The notes beneath the pieces were generated by a model. That model saw only the letters and a program-made list of their open reading frames with translations, was not told the DNA's origin and did no database searches. Shown piece by piece: positions 35,698 to 45,154 of a DNA stretch of 64,000 bases. The DNA lies in contig JAYVRX010000108.1 of assembly GCA_043775825.1 (NCBI GenBank), forward strand, positions 1,764-65,763, written 5' to 3'. How positions within the stretch are numbered: position 1 is the stretch's first letter; every line of letters begins with the position of its first letter. The translations under genes and the position numbers were made by a program. The DNA comes from Deinococcales bacterium. Its GTDB lineage: Bacteria; Deinococcota; Deinococci; Deinococcales; JAAFIG01.

Positions 35698-35858
35698 AAC
35701 ACATGCTAACGATCAGTACACTCAAGAATCTGAGAAAAACCTCAATAGCTGCCCGTTTCAACCCTCACTTGATACATTTGCTTTTACTCAAACCTCATCA
35801 AAGCTGGCTGTGTGATTTTAAGCACTCGAGAAACCCTGTACCCTGCTATACTTTTCAC

Positions 35859-36356
35859 ATGATAGAGCCAAGTATTGCACTATACGGGGAAGCGTTTGCG
35901 AAAGTTACTGCTTCGCTCGATGAATTACTGACCAAAGCACATGTTCGTTACGCCATGCTGGTAGACCGTAAAGGCTTTGTTCTGGCGCACCGTGAGGCAC
36001 TCTGGGCACCTAAACCGCCGACGCTAGATTCCATCGCCACCCTGATTGCGGGCAACGCCGCCGCCACCAGTGCGCTGGCAAAACTCTTGGGCGAACGCCG
36101 CTTCAACGAACTGGTACACCAAGGCGAACGCATTGGTTTGTACGTCGAAGAAATCTCGGACGAGGGTTTGCTGGTCGTGATTTTTGACGAAACCGCTCCG
36201 ATTGGGCGCGTCAAACTGTTCGCCAAAAAATCCATCGAAGAAATCGGCGGCTTAATTGATTCACTCGGAAGTGTCGAAACCACCAATGCCAACCTCGGTA
36301 ACGACTTTGCCCTCGACGCAAGCGCCTTACTCGACGATTTGTTCAAGGGGATGTAA
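35859..36356 (+). CDS. mglB: Roadblock/LC7 protein MglB
   Basis: Start MIEPS at 35859 after an extended -10 TGCTATACT; [21 protein letters not shown]; coupled to mglA. Confidence 0.85.
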
Positions 36357-36946
36357 TGTCAACCATTAATTTCGCGGCTCGAGAGATCAATTGTAAAATC
36401 GTGTACTACGGACCCGGTGTTGCCGGCAAAACCACCAACCTCAAATGGATTTACAAACAAGTTGACGACAGCGTTAAAGGCGAAATGGTTTCGCTCGCCA
36501 CCGAAGACGAACGTACCCTGTTCTTTGACTTTTTGCCGATAGATTTGGGTACAGTTCAAGGTTTTAAAACCCGTTTTCACCTGTACACCGTTCCAGGACA
36601 AGTTTTTTACAACGCCAGCCGCAAACTGATTTTGCGCGGCGTGGACGGCATTATTTTTGTTGCCGACAGCGCCCCAAATCGTCTTCGCGCCAACGCCGAA
36701 TCCATGCGCAACCTGCGCGAGAATTTGCAAGAATACAACCTGTCACTCGACGAAATTCCCATGATTGTCCAATTCAACAAACGCGACCTGCCCGACGCCA
36801 TGCCGATTGACATGCTTCGCGCTGTCGTTGACCCTAAAGGACAATTTCCCTTTCAAGAGGGCGCTGCCGCAAGTGGCGGCGGCGTGTTTGAAACATTACG
36901 CGCCGTGTCAAAAATGGTACTCGAGCGACTGGCAAAAAGTAAGTAG
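36356..36946 (+). CDS. mglA: Small GTPase MglA
   Basis: [37 protein letters not shown]. Confidence 0.92.
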
Positions 36947-38313: not shown

Positions 38314-38374
38314 CCCTGGCGCTCGAGCCACAAAAAATGACGAGGATTTCTCCTCGCCATGCACGGTTCAAAAC

Positions 38375-39754
38375 TTATTCCTGAGCTTCAATGCGGTTAA
38401 AGCCTTTTGGCGCTCCGACCTTATCCGCAATCACATTCTCGAGGTACTTCACCACGTTTTTTAATGGCACACGGTTCAGCACATCCTCGAGGAACGCCGT
38501 GACCAGCATTTTCTCGGCAATTGGCTTGGGAATGCCCCTCGAGCGCAAGTAAAAGAGTTCCTGCGCGTCCACAGGACCTGTGGTGCTGCCGTGAGAGCAC
38601 CGCACATCGTTGGCGTTGATCTCGAGTTGCGGCACGCTGTCGGTTCGCGCTTCATCGGACAGCAACAACGTGCGGTTTTTCTGGTACGCATCGGTTTTTT
38701 GGGCGTTCAATTCGACTTTAATCAAACCCGAAAACACAGCCCTTGCCTTGTCCGTCACAACACCCTTGAACAACAAATCTGAGTGTGCTCGAGGTTTGAG
38801 GTGATGCTGAAGCGTGTAATGGTCAAAATGCTGGTCTTTGTCGGCAAAGTACACCGCCAGCATTTCTGAATTCGAGTTTTCAGACAGTGCCGTCTGAACT
38901 TCCGAACGACTCAGCGTCGCGCCCATTGTGACGTACAAACTGTTCAGAGTCGCATCACGCTCGAGGTTCGATTTGATGCGTTGAATGTGCGTGAAACCGC
39001 GACCCCAGTTTTGAATCGCCACGTAACGCAAGTTTGCGCCCTTGCCCAAGAACAATTCGACCACGCCAAAGTTTGCGGCTTTCAAATCTGGGCTGTCCTG
39101 CTCGTCAATGTACGTGACTTTCGCGTTGTCCTCGAGCACCACCAACGTCCGAGAAGCCGTAAACGTTCCTTCCTGGTCGAGGTAACGGAAACCACCGAGC
39201 GGCAACTCGAGTTCGACATTTTTGGGCACGTACAAGAAAAAACCGTTGTCCCAAAGCGCGGCGTTCAGTGCCGTGAACTTGTCTTCGTCTAAATTAGGAA
39301 TCGCCTCGTAACGCTCGAGCGCCTGCGCGGTTGGGGCTGGGTACGCCGCGCCCACGACGCTGTACAAATACTTTTGCACCAATTCAGGATGTTTTTCGAT
39401 GGCTGTCTTTAAATCCGTGAAAATAACGCCTTTTGCCGCCAGTTCCGCAGGTACATCCTTAAAAATCACGCTTGAACCAGAAAGCACAATCCGTCCTGCT
39501 GCGTCCGTAGAGGAGAGACGATCACGAATTTTCGTGGGCAGTTCATCTAGGCTCGAGACTGCTGGTACGGGTTGGGCTGGACTGAAATTCTCGGGTTTGA
39601 ACCGTCGCAGGTTGGTGTACTTCCAAGATTCCACAGCCGTCGTTGGGATTTTACGGTCATGGTAAATCTCGAGGGCGGAAAGTCGGGCGGACTCGAGCCA
39701 TGCGGGTTCGTTGAGGCTCGAGATGGTGAAGGGGGATTGGGTTAATTGGGTCAT
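38375..39754 (-). CDS. sufD: Fe-S cluster assembly protein SufD
   Basis: ESWKYT, AVFSG.I, QKTDAYQ, PQLEI.ANDVRCSHG, FYLRSRGI. Confidence 0.9.
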   Translation of the reverse strand: MTQLTQSPFTISSLNEPAWLESARLSALEIYHDRKIPTTAVESWKYTNLRRFKPENFSPAQPVPAVSSLDELPTKIRDRLSSTDAAGRIVLSGSSVIFKDVPAELAAKGVIFTDLKTAIEKHPELVQKYLYSVVGAAYPAPTAQALERYEAIPNLDEDKFTALNAALWDNGFFLYVPKNVELELPLGGFRYLDQEGTFTASRTLVVLEDNAKVTYIDEQDSPDLKAANFGVVELFLGKGANLRYVAIQNWGRGFTHIQRIKSNLERDATLNSLYVTMGATLSRSEVQTALSENSNSEMLAVYFADKDQHFDHYTLQHHLKPRAHSDLLFKGVVTDKARAVFSGLIKVELNAQKTDAYQKNRTLLLSDEARTDSVPQLEINANDVRCSHGSTTGPVDAQELFYLRSRGIPKPIAEKMLVTAFLEDVLNRVPLKNVVKYLENVIADKVGAPKGFNRIEAQE

Positions 39755-39775
39755 ATTAGATTCCTTAAAACATGA

Positions 39776-40180
39776 TTATTTTTTTAATTTTTTTACAGCA
39801 AAATCGCCAAGTTTAACATCTTCGATTTCTCGATCAAAGGTTTCACCAGGCGTAGTTATTTCAGTTACTGGATTTTCACCGAGAAAATTGAACAAAGTTC
39901 CGCCTGAAGTCCTTTTAATCTCTCTTTTATCAGGTCTTTTGGAAATCTCAATTGATCTAATGGTTGTTATATTGTCTTGAATATGTACTGGAGAGGCTTG
40001 TCCTTTAAATATTTCAAGCTTTTCAAGCTCTTTATTAGTCTCAGGATCAATTATTATTTCACCTATTTCAATAATTGAAAATACATCTCCTTTTAAAACC
40101 CCATCTTTTGAACCCTGATTTATTACAAATTTAAATCCATCAATAACTTTAACAATTTTTGGACTATTTTCAGGTATCAT
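39776..40180 (-). CDS. Hypothetical protein, FlgT-C-terminal-like beta barrel, AT-rich
   Basis: VINQGSKDGVLKGDVF...IIDPETNKEL pattern; overlaps the upstream gene. Confidence 0.6.
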   Translation of the reverse strand: MIPENSPKIVKVIDGFKFVINQGSKDGVLKGDVFSIIEIGEIIIDPETNKELEKLEIFKGQASPVHIQDNITTIRSIEISKRPDKREIKRTSGGTLFNFLGENPVTEITTPGETFDREIEDVKLGDFAVKKLKK

Positions 40181-40676
40181 TTAAACCTACCTCCTCAAAC
40201 ATTTTAATCATTTCTAAGGTTATCGAATTTCTAAAAAATAACTTTTCTAAAGTTTTTGTATGATCTTTTTTTAAGTATTTTAATGGTTTTATCTGTAGAT
40301 AATCGCTTTGTGTCCACTGAACTGATCCAATAAAAACAGGAATTTCAAATTCTGAATCTTTTTCGTAGCAAACAGCTACAACGTTATTTGAAAATATTGG
40401 ATTTTTTCTAACAAGATACAGATTATATTTTTCTTCATACATAAAAGGGACTGCGTAGTCAAATATTTCACGAGTTTCATTTTTTTGTGTAAAAATATGA
40501 CTTAGGAGAACTGAGATAAGAATCAAAGAAAGAGTTGCCGAAAAAAGCAATATTTTCACTGGTATCTGAGAATTCACATCGACAAACATAGTCACAATAC
40601 TTGACATAAATCCTAAAACGCCAATAAGTATTGATAATCCGTTAATTGAGAAGGCAAATTTCGTAATTTTTGTCAT
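40170..40676 (-). CDS. Hypothetical membrane protein (2 N-terminal TM helices + beta domain), AT-rich
   Basis: 168-aa ORF in very AT-rich DNA; two hydrophobic helices at about residues 9-58. Confidence 0.65.
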   Translation of the reverse strand: MTKITKFAFSINGLSILIGVLGFMSSIVTMFVDVNSQIPVKILLFSATLSLILISVLLSHIFTQKNETREIFDYAVPFMYEEKYNLYLVRKNPIFSNNVVAVCYEKDSEFEIPVFIGSVQWTQSDYLQIKPLKYLKKDHTKTLEKLFFRNSITLEMIKMFEEVGLNDT

Positions 40677-40725
40677 GTTTACAATTCTTTATACTTAATG
40701 AATTTATATTTGAATTTCAACAGCT

Positions 40726-41018
40726 AAATTTGGTAATTACTCAACCCACCCCTCGTTATGAAACTATCGTGCTGCACGCGCTTGAAAATAGCCAAATTTT
40801 GCGAATTTATTCCCTCGAAATAAACCAAATTGAGTCTTCAATTTAATTTCGCCGTTCAGTACAGCATGGAACTAATTTTTATTGAAACCCTTGAGAATCA
40901 AGGAGTGATTTATTCTTAGATTTTCGATAAGGTGCGTTTAAAGTAAGAATCGTTTTGAGTACGCTATTTTTACTTAAATGCGAGTTGGAGTTATTCGGGT
41001 TGAGTAGTTACTAAATTT
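40726..41018. mobile_element. Putative MITE / IS remnant with imperfect terminal inverted repeats
   Basis: AAATTTGGTAATTACTCAACCC (40726..40747) vs GGGTTGAGTAGTTACTAAATTT (40997..41018): 20/22 inverted match; no ORF of 60 aa or more inside. Confidence 0.55.
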
Positions 41019-41086
41019 GAGTAGATTTACTAAAAAATGTAAAAATGTACTTTCTAATTTTTAGAGTCTGCAAAAAATCGAATTTT

Positions 41087-41299
41087 TTACTTAAACCAAG
41101 TTGTGCTGCCAAATTCTTTGGTTGTAGTTTTGCCATTTAAAATTTCAGTCAGTCCTTCTTGAATTGCTTTAGCTTCTTCAGCACTTAACTCTTCGTTTCC
41201 AGCAGGATGAACACTTAAAAGTAATTAGTACTCTTCGAGAGGCAATAAAATAAAGGTTCGCCCTATTTCATTGGTAATTTGTTGATGTGCTGCGATCAT
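41087..41299 (-). pseudogene. Pseudogenised paralog of antitoxin 41682..41939
   Basis: MIAAHQQITNEIGRTFILLPLEEY*LLLSVHPAGNEELSAEEA aligns with MIAG...IVLPLEEYQALLGIYPDDDEELTEEA; in-frame TAA at 41227..41225 replaces Gln; AGGAGG RBS retained. Confidence 0.75.
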
Positions 41300-41406
41300 T
41301 CTTACCTCCTAAAAATTTAATTCTCGAGATTACGCAAACTCGAGTTCTGCTGTTCTGCCTGGTGTTGGGTCTTGTGCAACTACAGCTTTCACCAATGCCT
41401 TGCGTC

Positions 41407-41685
41407 TTACTTTATCTTGTAAATATTTTTACGATGTCCAACTTTACGAACTTCCAACAAGTGTCCGTCTCGAACAAAAATGACCCGTAAATTCCCAAAA
41501 CTTAAACGGTAATGCCCCTTAAATTCACCCTGCATTTGTTTTATATCACCTCGAGCTTCCGCGCAAAGACTTAGAAGAGCATCCCAAACTTGTTCTTGTT
41601 CAAAGCGTTCGAGTTTACTAAATTCTTTTTCGGCGCGTTTCACAAATTGTAAGTAATAAGGTACATCTCGAGGGTTAATACTCAT
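41407..41685 (-). CDS. RelE/ParE family toxin
   Basis: KRAEKEFSKL, DIKQMQG, YRLSFGNLRVIF, VGHRKNIY. Confidence 0.85.
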   Translation of the reverse strand: MSINPRDVPYYLQFVKRAEKEFSKLERFEQEQVWDALLSLCAEARGDIKQMQGEFKGHYRLSFGNLRVIFVRDGHLLEVRKVGHRKNIYKIK

Positions 41686-41939
41686 GGTTTGATTGGGAAT
41701 TGTTGAGAGAGATTGAACTTAATTTGCATTTCTTCAGCGCTAACAACAGCATTACTGTTGCTTTCTTCGGTAGCAAGTCGTAAATCAAGTGCGGCTTCTT
41801 CGGTTAATTCTTCATCATCGTCTGGGTAAATGCCTAAAAGTGCTTGGTATTCCTCGAGCGGCAACACAATATGGGTTTTATTTCCTCGAGCATCACTGAG
41901 ATACTGGTGATTATCTTGTTCTTGAATACCTGCGATCAT
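41682..41939 (-). CDS. Acidic antitoxin (cognate of RelE-like toxin)
   Basis: YLSDARGNKTHIVLPLEEY motif, acidic tail, 4-nt overlap with the toxin. Confidence 0.7.
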   Translation of the reverse strand: MIAGIQEQDNHQYLSDARGNKTHIVLPLEEYQALLGIYPDDDEELTEEAALDLRLATEESNSNAVVSAEEMQIKFNLSQQFPIKP

Positions 41940-41981
41940 GTTTTGCTCCTTTCAATTATGCAAACTCGAGCTTTACTGCTC

Positions 41982-42161
41982 TTACAAATATTGAATGTTT
42001 TCCATAAAAGCAGCGCGTTCTTCTTCGGTACTGTCAGCTAATTCTCGAGCGAGTCGCTTCAGATTTTCTCGGCGGTGTTGCAAAAGAATTTGGTTGAGCC
42101 ATTCAAGTTCTGCTTCGCTCATTTTCTCAATTTTTTCGTGCAAATGTTCTTTGACACTCAT
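41982..42161 (-). CDS. 59-aa orphan paralog of antitoxin 42630..42896
   Basis: MSVKEHLHEKIEKMSEAELEWLNQILLQHRRENLKRLARELADSTEEERAAFMENIQYL; GAGGTG RBS; shares the N-terminal helix pattern and RENLK.LA...T.E...AF; below the ORF-track cutoff. Confidence 0.65.
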   Translation of the reverse strand: MSVKEHLHEKIEKMSEAELEWLNQILLQHRRENLKRLARELADSTEEERAAFMENIQYL

Positions 42162-42219
42162 GCTTCACCTCGCTTCGTTTAATTCAGCCCATTCAAGAAG
42201 TTTTCCAACATGCCTCGAG

Positions 42220-42633
42220 TTATCCTTGATTTCTTTCAATCCAATTCTCGAGTCGAATGTTCGGAACTCGAGCGAAATGCTTGGTGTTATCTGTCACCAG
42301 AATCGCACTTTGATTTATAGCTGTAGCGGCAATAAGTGTATCTGTATCCTCTAGTAATGTGCCTTGCTTTTTTAAGTGCTGGTAAATTAATACTGCTTGT
42401 TGTATTACGTTTCGATCTAATGGGTAAACAATAATATCTTCAAGCCAATCATGAAATCTCGAGTACTTCTTTTGATAATAGGGGAGTTCTAAACCGCGCT
42501 CAATCTCAAAATAAGTCATATTGCTAATGGTAAGAATGTGTCCGTCACTGTATTTTTGATCGAAAGTATCGGTAATGTTTTGATTTTCATTGACTATTTC
42601 GGAAATAACATTGGTGTCTAAAACGTATTTCAT
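42220..42633 (-). CDS. vapC: VapC family PIN-domain toxin
   Basis: YVLDTNVIS, E, DTLIAATA, LVTDNTKHFARV..L.LENW. Confidence 0.88.
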   Translation of the reverse strand: MKYVLDTNVISEIVNENQNITDTFDQKYSDGHILTISNMTYFEIERGLELPYYQKKYSRFHDWLEDIIVYPLDRNVIQQAVLIYQHLKKQGTLLEDTDTLIAATAINQSAILVTDNTKHFARVPNIRLENWIERNQG

Positions 42634-42896
42634 GGTTGAAATTCAATTGGTTTTCGGCGTAATGGACGACGTTTTACAGCTTCGTTAAACGCAGTTAAAT
42701 CTTCACCTGTTGGTTCGGCTAAGGCTTTCAAGTTTTCTCGAAACCGTTCTATTTCTTTTGGTGTGCGTTGTACTCGAACATCGGGTAAGTCTGGGTATTT
42801 AAATGCAGGGTCAGTGTCAATCACTTTTTTCAGTCGCTCGAGACTTGTTTTGGTCATGTGGTCTATTCGTTCAATGATTTCTTCTCGCATGGTCAT
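42630..42896 (-). CDS. Putative VapB-type antitoxin
   Basis: Start MTMREE at 42896 (GAGGAG RBS); 4-nt overlap with vapC. Confidence 0.65.
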   Translation of the reverse strand: MTMREEIIERIDHMTKTSLERLKKVIDTDPAFKYPDLPDVRVQRTPKEIERFRENLKALAEPTGEDLTAFNEAVKRRPLRRKPIEFQP

Positions 42897-42928
42897 GATT
42901 TCACTCCTCTCGAGCATTCTAAACGGCT

Positions 42929-44356
42929 TTAACCCACTGATCCTTCCATCTCGAGTTCAATCAAACGATTCAACTCCACCGCGTATTCGAGCGGTAATTC
43001 TTTGGCAATCGGTTCAATAAATCCGCGCACGATTAAACCTGTTGCGGCTTCTTCGCTTAACCCTCGAGACATCAGGTAGAACACTTGTTCGTCGTTAATT
43101 TTGCTAACTGTGGCTTCGTGTCCGACGCTGGCGGTTTTTTCTTCAATTTCAATGTACGGGTAGGTGTCAGTGCGGCTGTCGTCATTCAACAAGAGTGCAT
43201 CACATTCGACGTTGCTTTTGGCATTCGTTGCGCCATCATAAATTTTCACCAAACCACGGTAACTCGAGCGTCCAGAGTTTTTCGAGATTGATTTACTAAC
43301 AATGCTCGAGCTTGTGTTTGGTGCGAAATGCACGACTTTACCGCCTGCATCTTGGTGTTGTCCTGTGTTCGCCATTGCAATACTTAAAATTTCACCTCGA
43401 GCGTGTTCCTCGAGTAAGTATGTGGCTGGGTATTTCATGGTGACTTTGCTGCCCAGGTTGCCGTCCACCCATTCCATGTGCGCCCCTTGGTAGACGGCGG
43501 CGCGTTGGGTCACAAGGTTGTAAACGTTGTGTGACCAGTTTTGAATGGTGCTGTACCGCATCCGAGCGTCTTTTTTGACCACAATTTCGATCACGCCGCT
43601 GTGGAAGCTGTCGCTCGAGTAACTAGGTGCGGTGCAACCTTCAATGTAATGCGCGAATGCGCCCTCTTCAATCACGATCAGGGTACGTTCAAACTGCCCT
43701 GAGTTTTCGGCGTTGATGCGGAAGTAGGTTTGCAGTGGAATGTCCACTTTGACGCCTTTTGGCACGTAAACAAAGCTACCGCCTGACCAAACGGCGCTGT
43801 TCAAAGCTGCAAATTTGTTGTCCTCGGGTGGAATCACGGTTGCAAAATACTCGCGGAAGATGTCTGGATGCTCGCGCATTCCATCTTCAATCGACAAGAA
43901 GATTACTCCAAGCTTTTCCCATTCTTCCTTGAGGTTGTGATAGACCATTTCCGATTCGTACTGAGCGCCCACACCCGCCAGCATTCCGCGTTCGGCTTCG
44001 GGAATACCGAGTTTATCAAAGGTGCGTTTGATTTCGTCTGGCACATCGTCCCAGGTTCTAGCGTTTAGTTCGTCGGTTGGTTTGATGTAGTAGTAAATAT
44101 TCTCGAGGTCAAGTGCGCTTAAATCTGCGCCCCAAGTTGGAATTGGTTTGGAATTGTAAATATCAAGTGCCTTAAGCCTAAACTCGAGCATCCAGGCGGG
44201 TTCGTTTTTGGCGCTCGAGATCATTTTGACCACATCGGCGGATAAGCCTTTTGGGGCTTTGATCGTGTACTTTTCGGGCTGCGACCAGCCGTATTCGTAA
44301 CCGTCGTTGATTTTGGCGACTTCTGGGTTGGGTAGGTTGTCGGTGTATTGTGTCAT
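42929..44356 (-). CDS. sufB: Fe-S cluster assembly protein SufB
   Basis: [50 protein letters not shown]. Confidence 0.95.
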
Positions 44357-44377: not shown

Positions 44378-45154
44378 TTAATCTGCGGCGTTAAAGACTG
44401 GTTTTGGCAGGCTAGCGGCGTAATCTTTGACCCATTCGTAGCCCTGAGCCTCGAGTTTGGTGGCTAGGCTCTTATCGCCTGTTTGGACAATGCGTCCATC
44501 GACCATGATGTGTACTTTGTCGGGTTCGATCATGTCCAGAATTCGTTGGTAGTGCGTGACGATCAGCGCCGAGAAGTTTTCGCCGCGCATGGCATTCACG
44601 CCTTGGCAGACAACTTTTAAGGCATCAATGTCAAGCCCAGAATCGGTTTCGTCCATAATCGCAATGCTCGGCTCGAGCATCAGCATTTGTAAGATTTCGT
44701 TGCGTTTTTTCTCGCCACCAGAAAAGCCTTCGTTTAAATAGCGGTTGACCCAACTTTCGTCCCATTGCAGCAACGCCAAGGACTTCTGGAGTTTGGTGTA
44801 GAACGCCATAAATTGCACTTCTTCGCCGGTGCGGGCTTGAATCGCAAGGCGCAAAAAGTTGGCGACGGTCACACCAGGAATTTCGACTGGGTACTGAAAC
44901 GCCAAGAAAACGCCTTTGCGGGCGCGTTCATCGGCTTCCATGGTAAGGATATTCTCGCCGTCCAAGAGCACTTCGCCGCGTTCGACCACGTACTCGGGTG
45001 CGCCAGCAATGACTTTGGCGAGGGTGCTTTTACCGTTGCCGTTCGGTCCCATAATGGCGTGAATTTCGCCGCGTGGAATGGTTAAATTAACGCCATTCAG
45101 GATCATTTCTCCGTTGACGCTTGCCCATAAGTCTTTGATGATGAGTTCTTTCAT
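44378..45154 (-). CDS. sufC: Fe-S cluster assembly ATPase SufC
   Basis: [45 protein letters not shown]. Confidence 0.95.

Follow-up and report, generated by a model that had tools for sequence, protein, structure and literature searches.

Orphan antitoxins in a variable cassette slot between sufB and sufD of uncultured Deinococcales

Known three-gene toxin-antitoxin (TA) systems, such as toxin-antitoxin-chaperone, PaaR-PaaA-ParE and omega-epsilon-zeta, place a toxin, an antitoxin and one further small gene side by side, and their third gene is a conserved protein of a different kind, a chaperone or a regulator. The chromosomal integrons of Vibrio are hypervariable arrays rich in TA cassettes, composed of many small co-oriented cassettes with several TA pairs and short repeated borders. 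Defence islands and hotspots are located between core genes, where conserved flanks enclose a content that differs from genome to genome. Here we analyze an array of TA genes that lies inside the suf operon, between sufB and sufD, in a 64,000-nt stretch of DNA (the window) from a Deinococcales bacterium. A preliminary description, made from the letters of the window alone, had noted in it a repeated order of antitoxin, toxin and trailing antitoxin-like gene (A-T-A') and had offered two readings: a tripartite TA design with a trailing decoy or modulator antitoxin, or serial cassette insertion with toxin loss at a hotspot. Our comparison with relatives argues strongly for the second. The interval is very probably a slot of swapped and decaying TA and defence cassettes, in which the trailing antitoxins are leftovers of modules that have become toxin-less.

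The locus resembles each of the described systems and departs from each of them. In contrast to the conserved third gene of tripartite systems, the trailing gene here seems to be a non-conserved leftover of the next module. Compared with the Vibrio integrons, the array has no integrase on its contig, its borders read as gene-end relics rather than attC hairpins, and it is contained within one operon. It also recalls degraded type II TA systems; passages of a review describe most orphan antitoxins of the Klebsiella pneumoniae complex as remnants of such systems (PMC7354431). The window likewise holds toxin-less antitoxins beside intact VapBC and RelBE/ParDE modules, one of them a plain pseudogene, with the difference that the decay has taken place within one compact array inside an essential operon, and that the same position in relatives reveals which toxins are missing.

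A variable slot between sufB and sufD

All coordinates are those of the window, and all genes of the array and of its suf flanks lie on the minus strand. The window's own genome (G000) is a 4.54-Mb assembly of 79% completeness, in which the locus is carried by a 66-kb contig. The slot is bordered by two conserved genes, sufB (42929..44356; Pfam SUFBD_core, 5.6e-87) on the left and sufD (38375..39754; Pfam SUFBD_core, 4.4e-79) on the right. The gap between them is 3,174 bases, in agreement with the previous estimate of about 3.2 kb of co-oriented genes. From sufB to sufD, it contains the pair A1-VapC1, the 59-aa gene A1', the pair A2-RelE/ParE, the broken gene A2', and a low-GC island of two genes.

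We searched for sufB in 30 relatives, all of which yielded it at 66-100% identity, and fetched the downstream DNA. Eighteen of them belong to the same family (relatives are denoted G001-G018), and 11 of these have a complete sufB-sufD interval, so that 12 intervals including that of the window were compared. Five genomes (G003, G006, G008, G010 and G015) were dropped because the contig stops at or just after sufB. In G012 and G017, sufB is followed by other genes, including an ABC-transporter-like gene, and the array is found upstream of sufD on another contig; the suf operon appears to be split in these two genomes.

All 12 intervals are co-oriented, 1.4-6.3 kb long, and contain matches to the window's TA proteins, and no two of them are alike in content. 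The sufB-sufD interval is thus variable in both content and length in 12 of 12 cases, with conserved flanks, and variants are also seen within one sample, as described below. The presence of a different cassette set in every family interval supports the proposal of serial cassette insertion with toxin loss at a hotspot. Outside the family, three genomes of a neighbouring family used as outgroups show a gap of 0.2-0.9 kb with no matches to the window's TA proteins and no excess of the word CTCGAG, and sufB and sufD are only ~60-110 bases apart in two more distant genomes. The slot interrupts sufB and sufD in at least five genera of this uncultured Deinococcales family. Unlike the defence islands mentioned above, it is a small slot that follows the orientation of the operon strictly in all 12 intervals and splits sufB from sufD. 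Such a location throughout a family is unusual, and a literature search, judged by titles and abstracts, found no report of TA genes within suf.

Besides VapBC and RelBE/ParDE modules, several other kinds of cassettes occupy the slot. One consists of a DUF5674 gene and a partner of 109-115 aa, a second of a DUF4258-like gene and a 74-aa partner, and a third of a retropepsin-like gene (PADLOC PDC-M52B, 2e-30) whose partner has 68-80 aa. Further cassettes encode a trypsin-like protease, a PLD-like nuclease whose tail is Cys-rich, and a membrane-anchored protein of 127-143 aa. Candidate defence matches in the relatives include a DrmC-like PLD protein (2e-8) and a protease domain of the RT-protease/LmuA kind (1e-11).

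The turnover of cassettes can be followed in individual genome pairs. In G004, a relic, A1' and VapC2 occupy the ~630 bases from the stop of a 113-aa gene to the leader of A2', and in G005 the same two flanks join at a single CTCGAG. Cassette orthologs within a genus show dS values of 1.3-2.4, compared with 0.4-0.6 for sufD in the same genome pairs. The difference suggests exchange between lineages or the persistence of old alleles, such that the cassettes would be older than, or foreign to, their host lineages. In the 6.3-kb array of G014, a 99-nt copy (88%) of the genome's own sufD 5' end (L037 3458-3556) is followed by an A1-type leader, and this array looks like two arrays joined end to end. 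No copy of a flanking gene was found in the window interval.

The balance of antitoxins and toxins is strongly one-sided. Among 30 antitoxin-type open reading frames (ORFs) classified by BLASTP in the 12 intervals, 17 have a toxin gene behind them and 13 stand without one, and every one of the 17 toxin genes is preceded by an antitoxin. One of the 13 orphans is an 80-aa ORF of G001 located ahead of the retropepsin-like gene; the window's broken A2' is uncounted and would add one. In addition, the A1 ortholog is found without VapC1 in three same-genus genomes (G002, G004 and G005). An antitoxin-toxin module can be safely dismantled only toxin first, and the absence of lone toxins fits such a toxin-first decay. 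The slot would then represent a natural record of the death of TA modules, in which the toxin is lost first and the antitoxin lingers, inside an essential iron-sulfur assembly operon.

Origins of the trailing antitoxin genes

The two intact modules are located where the preliminary description had placed them, and both seem to be ordinary systems of the VapBC and RelBE/ParDE type. In module 1, the antitoxin gene A1 (42630..42917) has its likely true start at 42896 (MTMREE...), which is preceded by a better ribosome-binding site (GAGGAG). Although no Pfam, NCBIfam or PADLOC family matches A1 above the cut-off, its orthologs (47-88% identical) are located directly after sufB in same-genus genomes. 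A1 overlaps by 4 nt (42630-42633) with VapC1 (42220..42633), an intact gene for a PIN-domain toxin (Pfam PIN, 8.2e-14; NCBIfam VapC models, 1.2e-23) in which the residues D6, E43, D96, D98 and D115 are invariant among 5 orthologs. The same type of pairing is also found in G001, G013, G014 and G018, and the pair is predicted to be a translationally coupled VapBC type II module.

Module 2 is composed of the antitoxin gene A2 (41682..41939), with a weak RelB-like match in Pfam (E 0.002), and an intact ORF for a putative toxin of the RelE/ParE family (41407..41685). The two overlap by 4 nt (41682-41685), and the pairing is kept in G014 and G018, where A2 orthologs (41-49% identical) lie upstream of RelE orthologs (74-77%). 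The toxin scores 22.7 bits against the Pfam ParE_toxin cut-off of 23, and has paralogs in its own genome with matches down to 7e-17. The 85-aa toxins in the arrays of relatives score 38-45 bits with the same model and align to the window RelE at 26-28%. Module 2 is therefore best described as a putative type II module, again translationally coupled, with a RelE/ParE-type toxin just under the family cut-off.

A1' (41982..42161) encodes 59 aa, with GAGGTG ahead of its ATG, and matches no curated Pfam, NCBIfam or PADLOC family above the cut-off. It had been taken for a paralog of A1. The kinship itself is retained, since the two genes are linked through intermediates in relatives: searched with a 71-aa antitoxin of G001, A1 gives an E value of 4e-16 and A1' one of 1.7e-10, and A1 is also matched by the 67-aa orthologs of A1' (4e-7). 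However, a direct BLASTP comparison of A1 with A1' returns no alignment even at E<=100. The kinship is visible only through the intermediates, and A1 and A1' are old members of one family rather than a local duplication.

The partner of A1' can be identified in relatives. In G004, G009, G016 and G017, each 67-aa ortholog of A1' (76-79% identical) has a PIN gene, VapC2 (Pfam PIN, 4e-9 to 2e-13), as the next gene downstream, and this toxin is absent from the window. VapC2 and VapC1 are 39% identical, and a VapC2 query against the window's contig gives VapC1, at this identity, as the sole match. When 185,579 species genomes were scanned, the A1' subfamily was found at 4 close loci only, all in metagenome-assembled genomes of Deinococcales, with VapC2 always next and sufD always adjacent; these loci are apparently those of the same four relatives and are not counted twice. 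A1' is 8 residues shorter than its 67-aa orthologs (...ENIQYL vs ...ENIQRTPWSSRADP), the conserved Arg before the tail is also lost, and the gene runs directly into the stump of another gene. Taken together, A1' seems to be the antitoxin of a separate VapBC2 module, the PIN toxin of which was deleted here. A complex prediction of VapC1 with A1' gave a score of zero, under the mark, which is evidence neither for nor against binding.

A2' (41070..41299; previously delimited as 41087..41299) is a pseudogene of a RelB-type antitoxin. The preliminary description regarded it as a paralog of A2 carrying one nonsense codon, and both the paralogy and the codon are borne out. A2 and A2' align with a pairwise E of 0.004 and 19/40 identities, a whole-genome search with A2' returns A2 as the only other match (1e-5), and the TAA at 41225-41227 corresponds to codon 25. 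What had been missed is a second lesion, a 2-base deletion (-2 frameshift) near 41118/41119 relative to the intact 71-aa orthologs, past which the ortholog frame (...AAQLGLS) carries on in another frame. The lesions were read from a DNA alignment with G001 and G005 (71 aa, intact) and G002 (61 aa). Contigs of two runs show the TAA without an alternative letter; these are assembled contigs rather than raw reads, they possibly come from the window's own source sample, and contigs drop rare variants. As with A1', no curated Pfam, NCBIfam or PADLOC family matches A2' above the cut-off.

Genes of the A2' type are present near the sufD end in nearly all arrays. Their N-terminal domain (MIAAHQQITDETG.TF.LLPLEEY) is conserved, and their C-terminal tails differ. 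In G012, G014 and G017, the gene behind the form with a 'WHR' tail encodes an 85-aa ParE_toxin protein, and those with the window's tail, which are homologous to A2 over its length (8e-16), are toxin-less in G001, G005 and G002. As a side observation, the tail (...E.AWHR...) and its 85-aa ParE-family toxin are combined with an A1-type N-domain in G002 (L034 3380-3580) and with an A2-type N-domain in G012 (L048 473-658), G014 (L037 2544-2726) and G017 (L049 1604-1786). This sharing of one toxin-binding tail by two N-domain types points to domain swapping among antitoxins.

Cassette borders, residence time and co-occurring strains

A pair of 16-mers ending in CTCGAG had been reported at 41329..41344 and 41955..41970. 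We find them as reported: the two words, ATTACGCAAACTCGAG and ATTATGCAAACTCGAG, are 15/16 identical, and the match does not extend on either side. On the coding strand they read CTC GAG TTT GCA/GCG TAA, that is, Leu-Glu-Phe-Ala-stop, the conserved end (...AELEFA-stop) of the 74-aa cassette gene. We interpret the 16-mer not as a signal but as the last codons of that gene, left behind as two relics. A role as a -10 box or an operator was also considered and was rejected once the coding relic had been recognized.

Relic 1, which includes the second 16-mer, is located between A1' and A2 (41956..41981) and retains the last ~8 codons (RAVKLEFA-stop); it is short, and its probable identity follows from the reading frame and from the full-length 74-aa genes. 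Relic 2, with the first 16-mer, abuts the RelE stop (41330..41410) and comprises the last 26 codons and the stop (...VAQDPTPGRTAELEFA-stop). In tblastn searches, the 74-aa genes of 7 relatives match it with 54-72% identity and E values of 1e-9 to 6e-7. The full-length 74-aa gene is found behind a DUF4258-like gene, in two tandem copies, on contig C19 of the window's own genome (13612-15444), and these pairs presumably represent the intact form of the module whose stumps sit in the suf array. Across the 12 intervals, the LEFA-stop motif occurs at 9 true ends of 74-aa genes and as 8 gene-less stumps at cassette borders. A second recurrent stump, the 3' end of a VapC gene (CTCGAGAATTGGAT..., LENWIE...), precedes several A2'-type genes. 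A strict 15-mer of the repeat has 4 copies in the genome, 2 of which are in this interval, with ~1 expected by chance according to our own arithmetic.

The word CTCGAG is hyper-abundant in this genome. It occurs 441 times in the window, where the next palindromic hexamer reaches 60. The 4.54-Mb genome contains 28,914 copies, one per 157 bases, so that a repeat 'ending in CTCGAG' carries little weight in itself. A literature search on an overrepresented CTCGAG palindrome found nothing relevant, as judged from the listings. The word may nevertheless serve as a clock that tells old resident cassettes from fresh arrivals. The TA part of the slot (41300-42917, GC 0.40) contains 8.7 CTCGAG per kb vs 6.4 genome-wide, and therefore seems to have been resident in the lineage for long. 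The region 39717-41323 (GC 0.30) has no CTCGAG over 1,606 bases, the longest such gap of the window, where ~10 sites would be expected (P ~4e-5). It encloses the low-GC island (39776..41069, GC 0.30), which ends 21 nt before the sufD ATG and encodes orf168 (40170..40676), with a hydrophobic N-terminal part, and orf134 (39776..40180). The lack of the word suggests that these two genes are a recent arrival. Neither has a Pfam, NCBIfam or PADLOC family, and their look-alikes in the ESM Atlas are unnamed clusters only.

Assembled contigs from metagenomic data give a view of the array within a population. Of the sampled words, 86% are present in two DNA runs from a single sediment study, and we compared the contigs assembled from these runs. 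One contig matches 41107-42045 without any difference, from A2' through the relic, RelE and A2 into the 3' part of A1', and a variant contig with 15 differences links A1' to the end of VapC1. Contig depth is ~30-50 over A1/VapC1 and the suf flanks but only 10.9 over A2'-A2 and 6.6 over the island, and other contigs have loose ends that start precisely at the sufD ATG (39754/39755). Depths and loose ends fit several co-occurring strains with different arrays. Given its depth of 6.6, the low-GC island seems to be confined to a sub-population. A joint of 41300 to 42172, which would place A2' directly after VapC1, was seen in one contig of depth 2.9 with a 32-base side; it was considered too weak and was not used.

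These observations can be combined into a probable history of the slot. Small co-oriented genes of TA and defence type have very probably been collected between sufB and sufD and then exchanged, duplicated and deleted. The window contains debris of at least three further modules: A1', the two 3' stumps of the 74-aa partner of a DUF4258-like module, and A2'. Loss of the toxin first would fill the arrays with orphan antitoxins, and an orphan lying behind a neighbouring intact module would produce the A-T-A' look. Shuffling has most likely proceeded through recombination between short conserved cassette ends, such as LEFA-stop, the VapC end CTCGAGAATTGGAT and the leaders, many of which carry the CTCGAG word, and a recent insertion seems to have brought the low-GC pair of genes next to sufD. 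The DNA itself shows the gene identities, the relics, the lesions, the partner toxins in relatives and how variable the slot is, and we infer the order of events, the mechanism of recombination and a possible co-transcription with suf.

Alternative explanations and operon context

Several observations weigh against decay as the fate of the trailing antitoxins. A1' retains an uninterrupted ORF behind a good ribosome-binding site, and its pairwise dN/dS to the orthologs is ~0.07, although dS is saturated (1.9-2.4) and a recent relaxation of selection would be undetectable; A1' may still be expressed and useful. Among the toxin-less orthologs of A2', those of G001 and G005 are intact and that of G002 is nearly so. 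Their dN/dS is 0.07-0.19, although synonymous sites are likewise saturated and conceal recent change, and orphan antitoxins may be kept by selection in these relatives. Three 71-aa members of the family stop where A1' stops and are still paired with VapC, so that the missing tail of A1' is no proof of lost function. The assemblies themselves call for caution, because every genome used is a metagenome bin and a source-like sample contains several strains in this region; some array paths could be assembly chimeras. Finally, ends of homology blocks fall within 6 nt of CTCGAG in 70/372 cases vs 10% of random points, an enrichment of only ~2-fold in a confounded test, in which the ends are noisy, non-independent and avoid CTCGAG-poor foreign DNA that the null includes. 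We did not use it as proof of the mechanism.

The alternative that survives best is that A1' and the intact A2' orthologs are working orphan antitoxins, acting either in anti-addiction against toxins of the same family or as repressors of array promoters, in which case the hotspot history would also be true. The intactness of A1' and of the toxin-less A2' orthologs in 2-3 same-genus genomes agrees with this idea, as does the large share of orphans (13 of the 30 antitoxin-type ORFs). Orphan antitoxins are described as proposed anti-addiction modules in the review cited above, passages of which present anti-addiction as undemonstrated as a common use and most orphan antitoxins as degraded in appearance (PMC7354431). 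In the window, however, A2' is doubly broken, and A1' lacks its last 8 residues together with the conserved Arg before them. VapC1, moreover, shares only 39% identity with VapC2, and A1 and A1' have diverged beyond BLASTP alignment. We therefore regard working orphans as an unlikely explanation here, and retain the cassette slot with toxin-first decay.

An integron-like capture, with cassettes placed at a fixed site beside sufD or sufB by a recombinase dedicated to the task, is considerably less probable still, to the point of being very unlikely. It could explain why the cassettes are co-oriented, promoter-less in appearance and bordered by short repeats, why population variants break exactly at the sufD ATG, and why a 99-nt copy of the sufD 5' end is present within the G014 array. 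Nevertheless, no adjacent IntI-type tyrosine recombinase was found: the 66-kb contig encodes no tyrosine recombinase, and all 3 Phage_integrase matches of the genome, which is 79% complete, are on other contigs. The border repeats read as the 3' ends of cassette genes and not as a common hairpin site, although no formal attC search was made, and the other mobile genes (the RRXRR+HNH gene of G017 and the end of an IS3-like transposase in G012) are sporadic only. If the cassettes are indeed exchanged without an integrase, the slot would be a compact system for studying such exchange.

The tripartite design has two features in its favor, the A-T-A' order occurring twice in a row in the window and the sharing of an antitoxin N-domain type between each trailing gene and the module it follows. 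The pattern is not repeated elsewhere. A1' is behind none of the four A1-VapC1-like modules of relatives: in G001 a DUF5674 gene comes next, in G013 a relic and another VapBC, in G014 a gene of the A2' type together with its toxin, and in G018 A2-RelE. Similarly, A2' is behind neither of the two A2-RelE modules of relatives, where a PLD-like gene (G018) or a 170-aa gene (G014) takes its place. None of 12 other VapC or RelE/ParE loci of the window's genome has a trailing antitoxin paralog, the best candidate being an alignment of 29 residues with E 0.01 and 21% identity. Only two antitoxin N-domain types are present in the arrays, and the A1-type is always on the sufB side of the A2-type in 10/12 intervals (the exceptions are G001 and G014); therefore, neighbours of the same type are expected by position alone. 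With trailing genes that are not conserved with their modules, the grounds on which the preliminary description would itself have given it up, and with a toxin of its own for A1' elsewhere and two lesions in A2' (A1' is intact as an ORF), a third gene acting as a decoy or modulator to tune toxin release has almost no probability left.

We next consider the array as a part of the suf operon. The run begins with sufC (44378..45154), named from its translation and from tblastn matches of 68-100% beside sufB in relatives. No terminator-like site was found on the coding strand between 39754 and 42929, and, outside the coding regions of suf genes, the only such site on this strand is the hairpin after sufD (38337..38360, a 10-pair stem followed by a T run). 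A scan for consensus promoters gave 8 sites vs 10.5 in shuffles, i.e. no excess. The array may be co-transcribed with suf. If it is read through from the suf promoter, the dosage of toxin and defence genes would track iron and oxidative stress. A wider proposal, which we put forward only tentatively and consider somewhat doubtful as a whole, is that of a dedicated, integrase-free slot whose stacked TA and defence genes are shuffled through gene-end repeats bearing the CTCGAG word, in which the suf operon, being essential and responsive to stress, guarantees transcription and prevents loss, and the orphans provide standing immunity against re-invading toxins.

Some minor observations concern other cassettes and neighbours. 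The DUF5674 gene (Pfam 5.5e-31; for example L035 1979-2655, G011) with its overlapping 109-115-aa partner is the commonest non-TA cassette and is often located directly after sufB. It is whole or fragmentary in G001, G002, G004, G005, G007, G011, G013 and G014; the partner is family-less, and the window does not contain this cassette. The RRXRR+HNH protein of G017 (L049 2381-3652; 423 aa; Pfam 1e-65 and 4e-13) is encoded by the last gene before sufD, and the array contig of G012 opens with what appears, by eye, to be the C-terminal end of an IS3-type transposase (L048 1-120). A small, perfectly paired hairpin, GATGGGC-AAA-GCCCATC, lies between cassettes in the arrays of three relatives, at ~2250 of the L038 interval (G013), at L049 1-40 (G017) and at ~5744 of the L037 interval (G014), and is absent from the window interval. 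Beyond sufD, at 35703-36946 on the plus strand, a 217-aa ORF and a 196-aa GTPase-like ORF resemble, by eye, an MglB/MglA pair (Roadblock and Ras-like GTPase).

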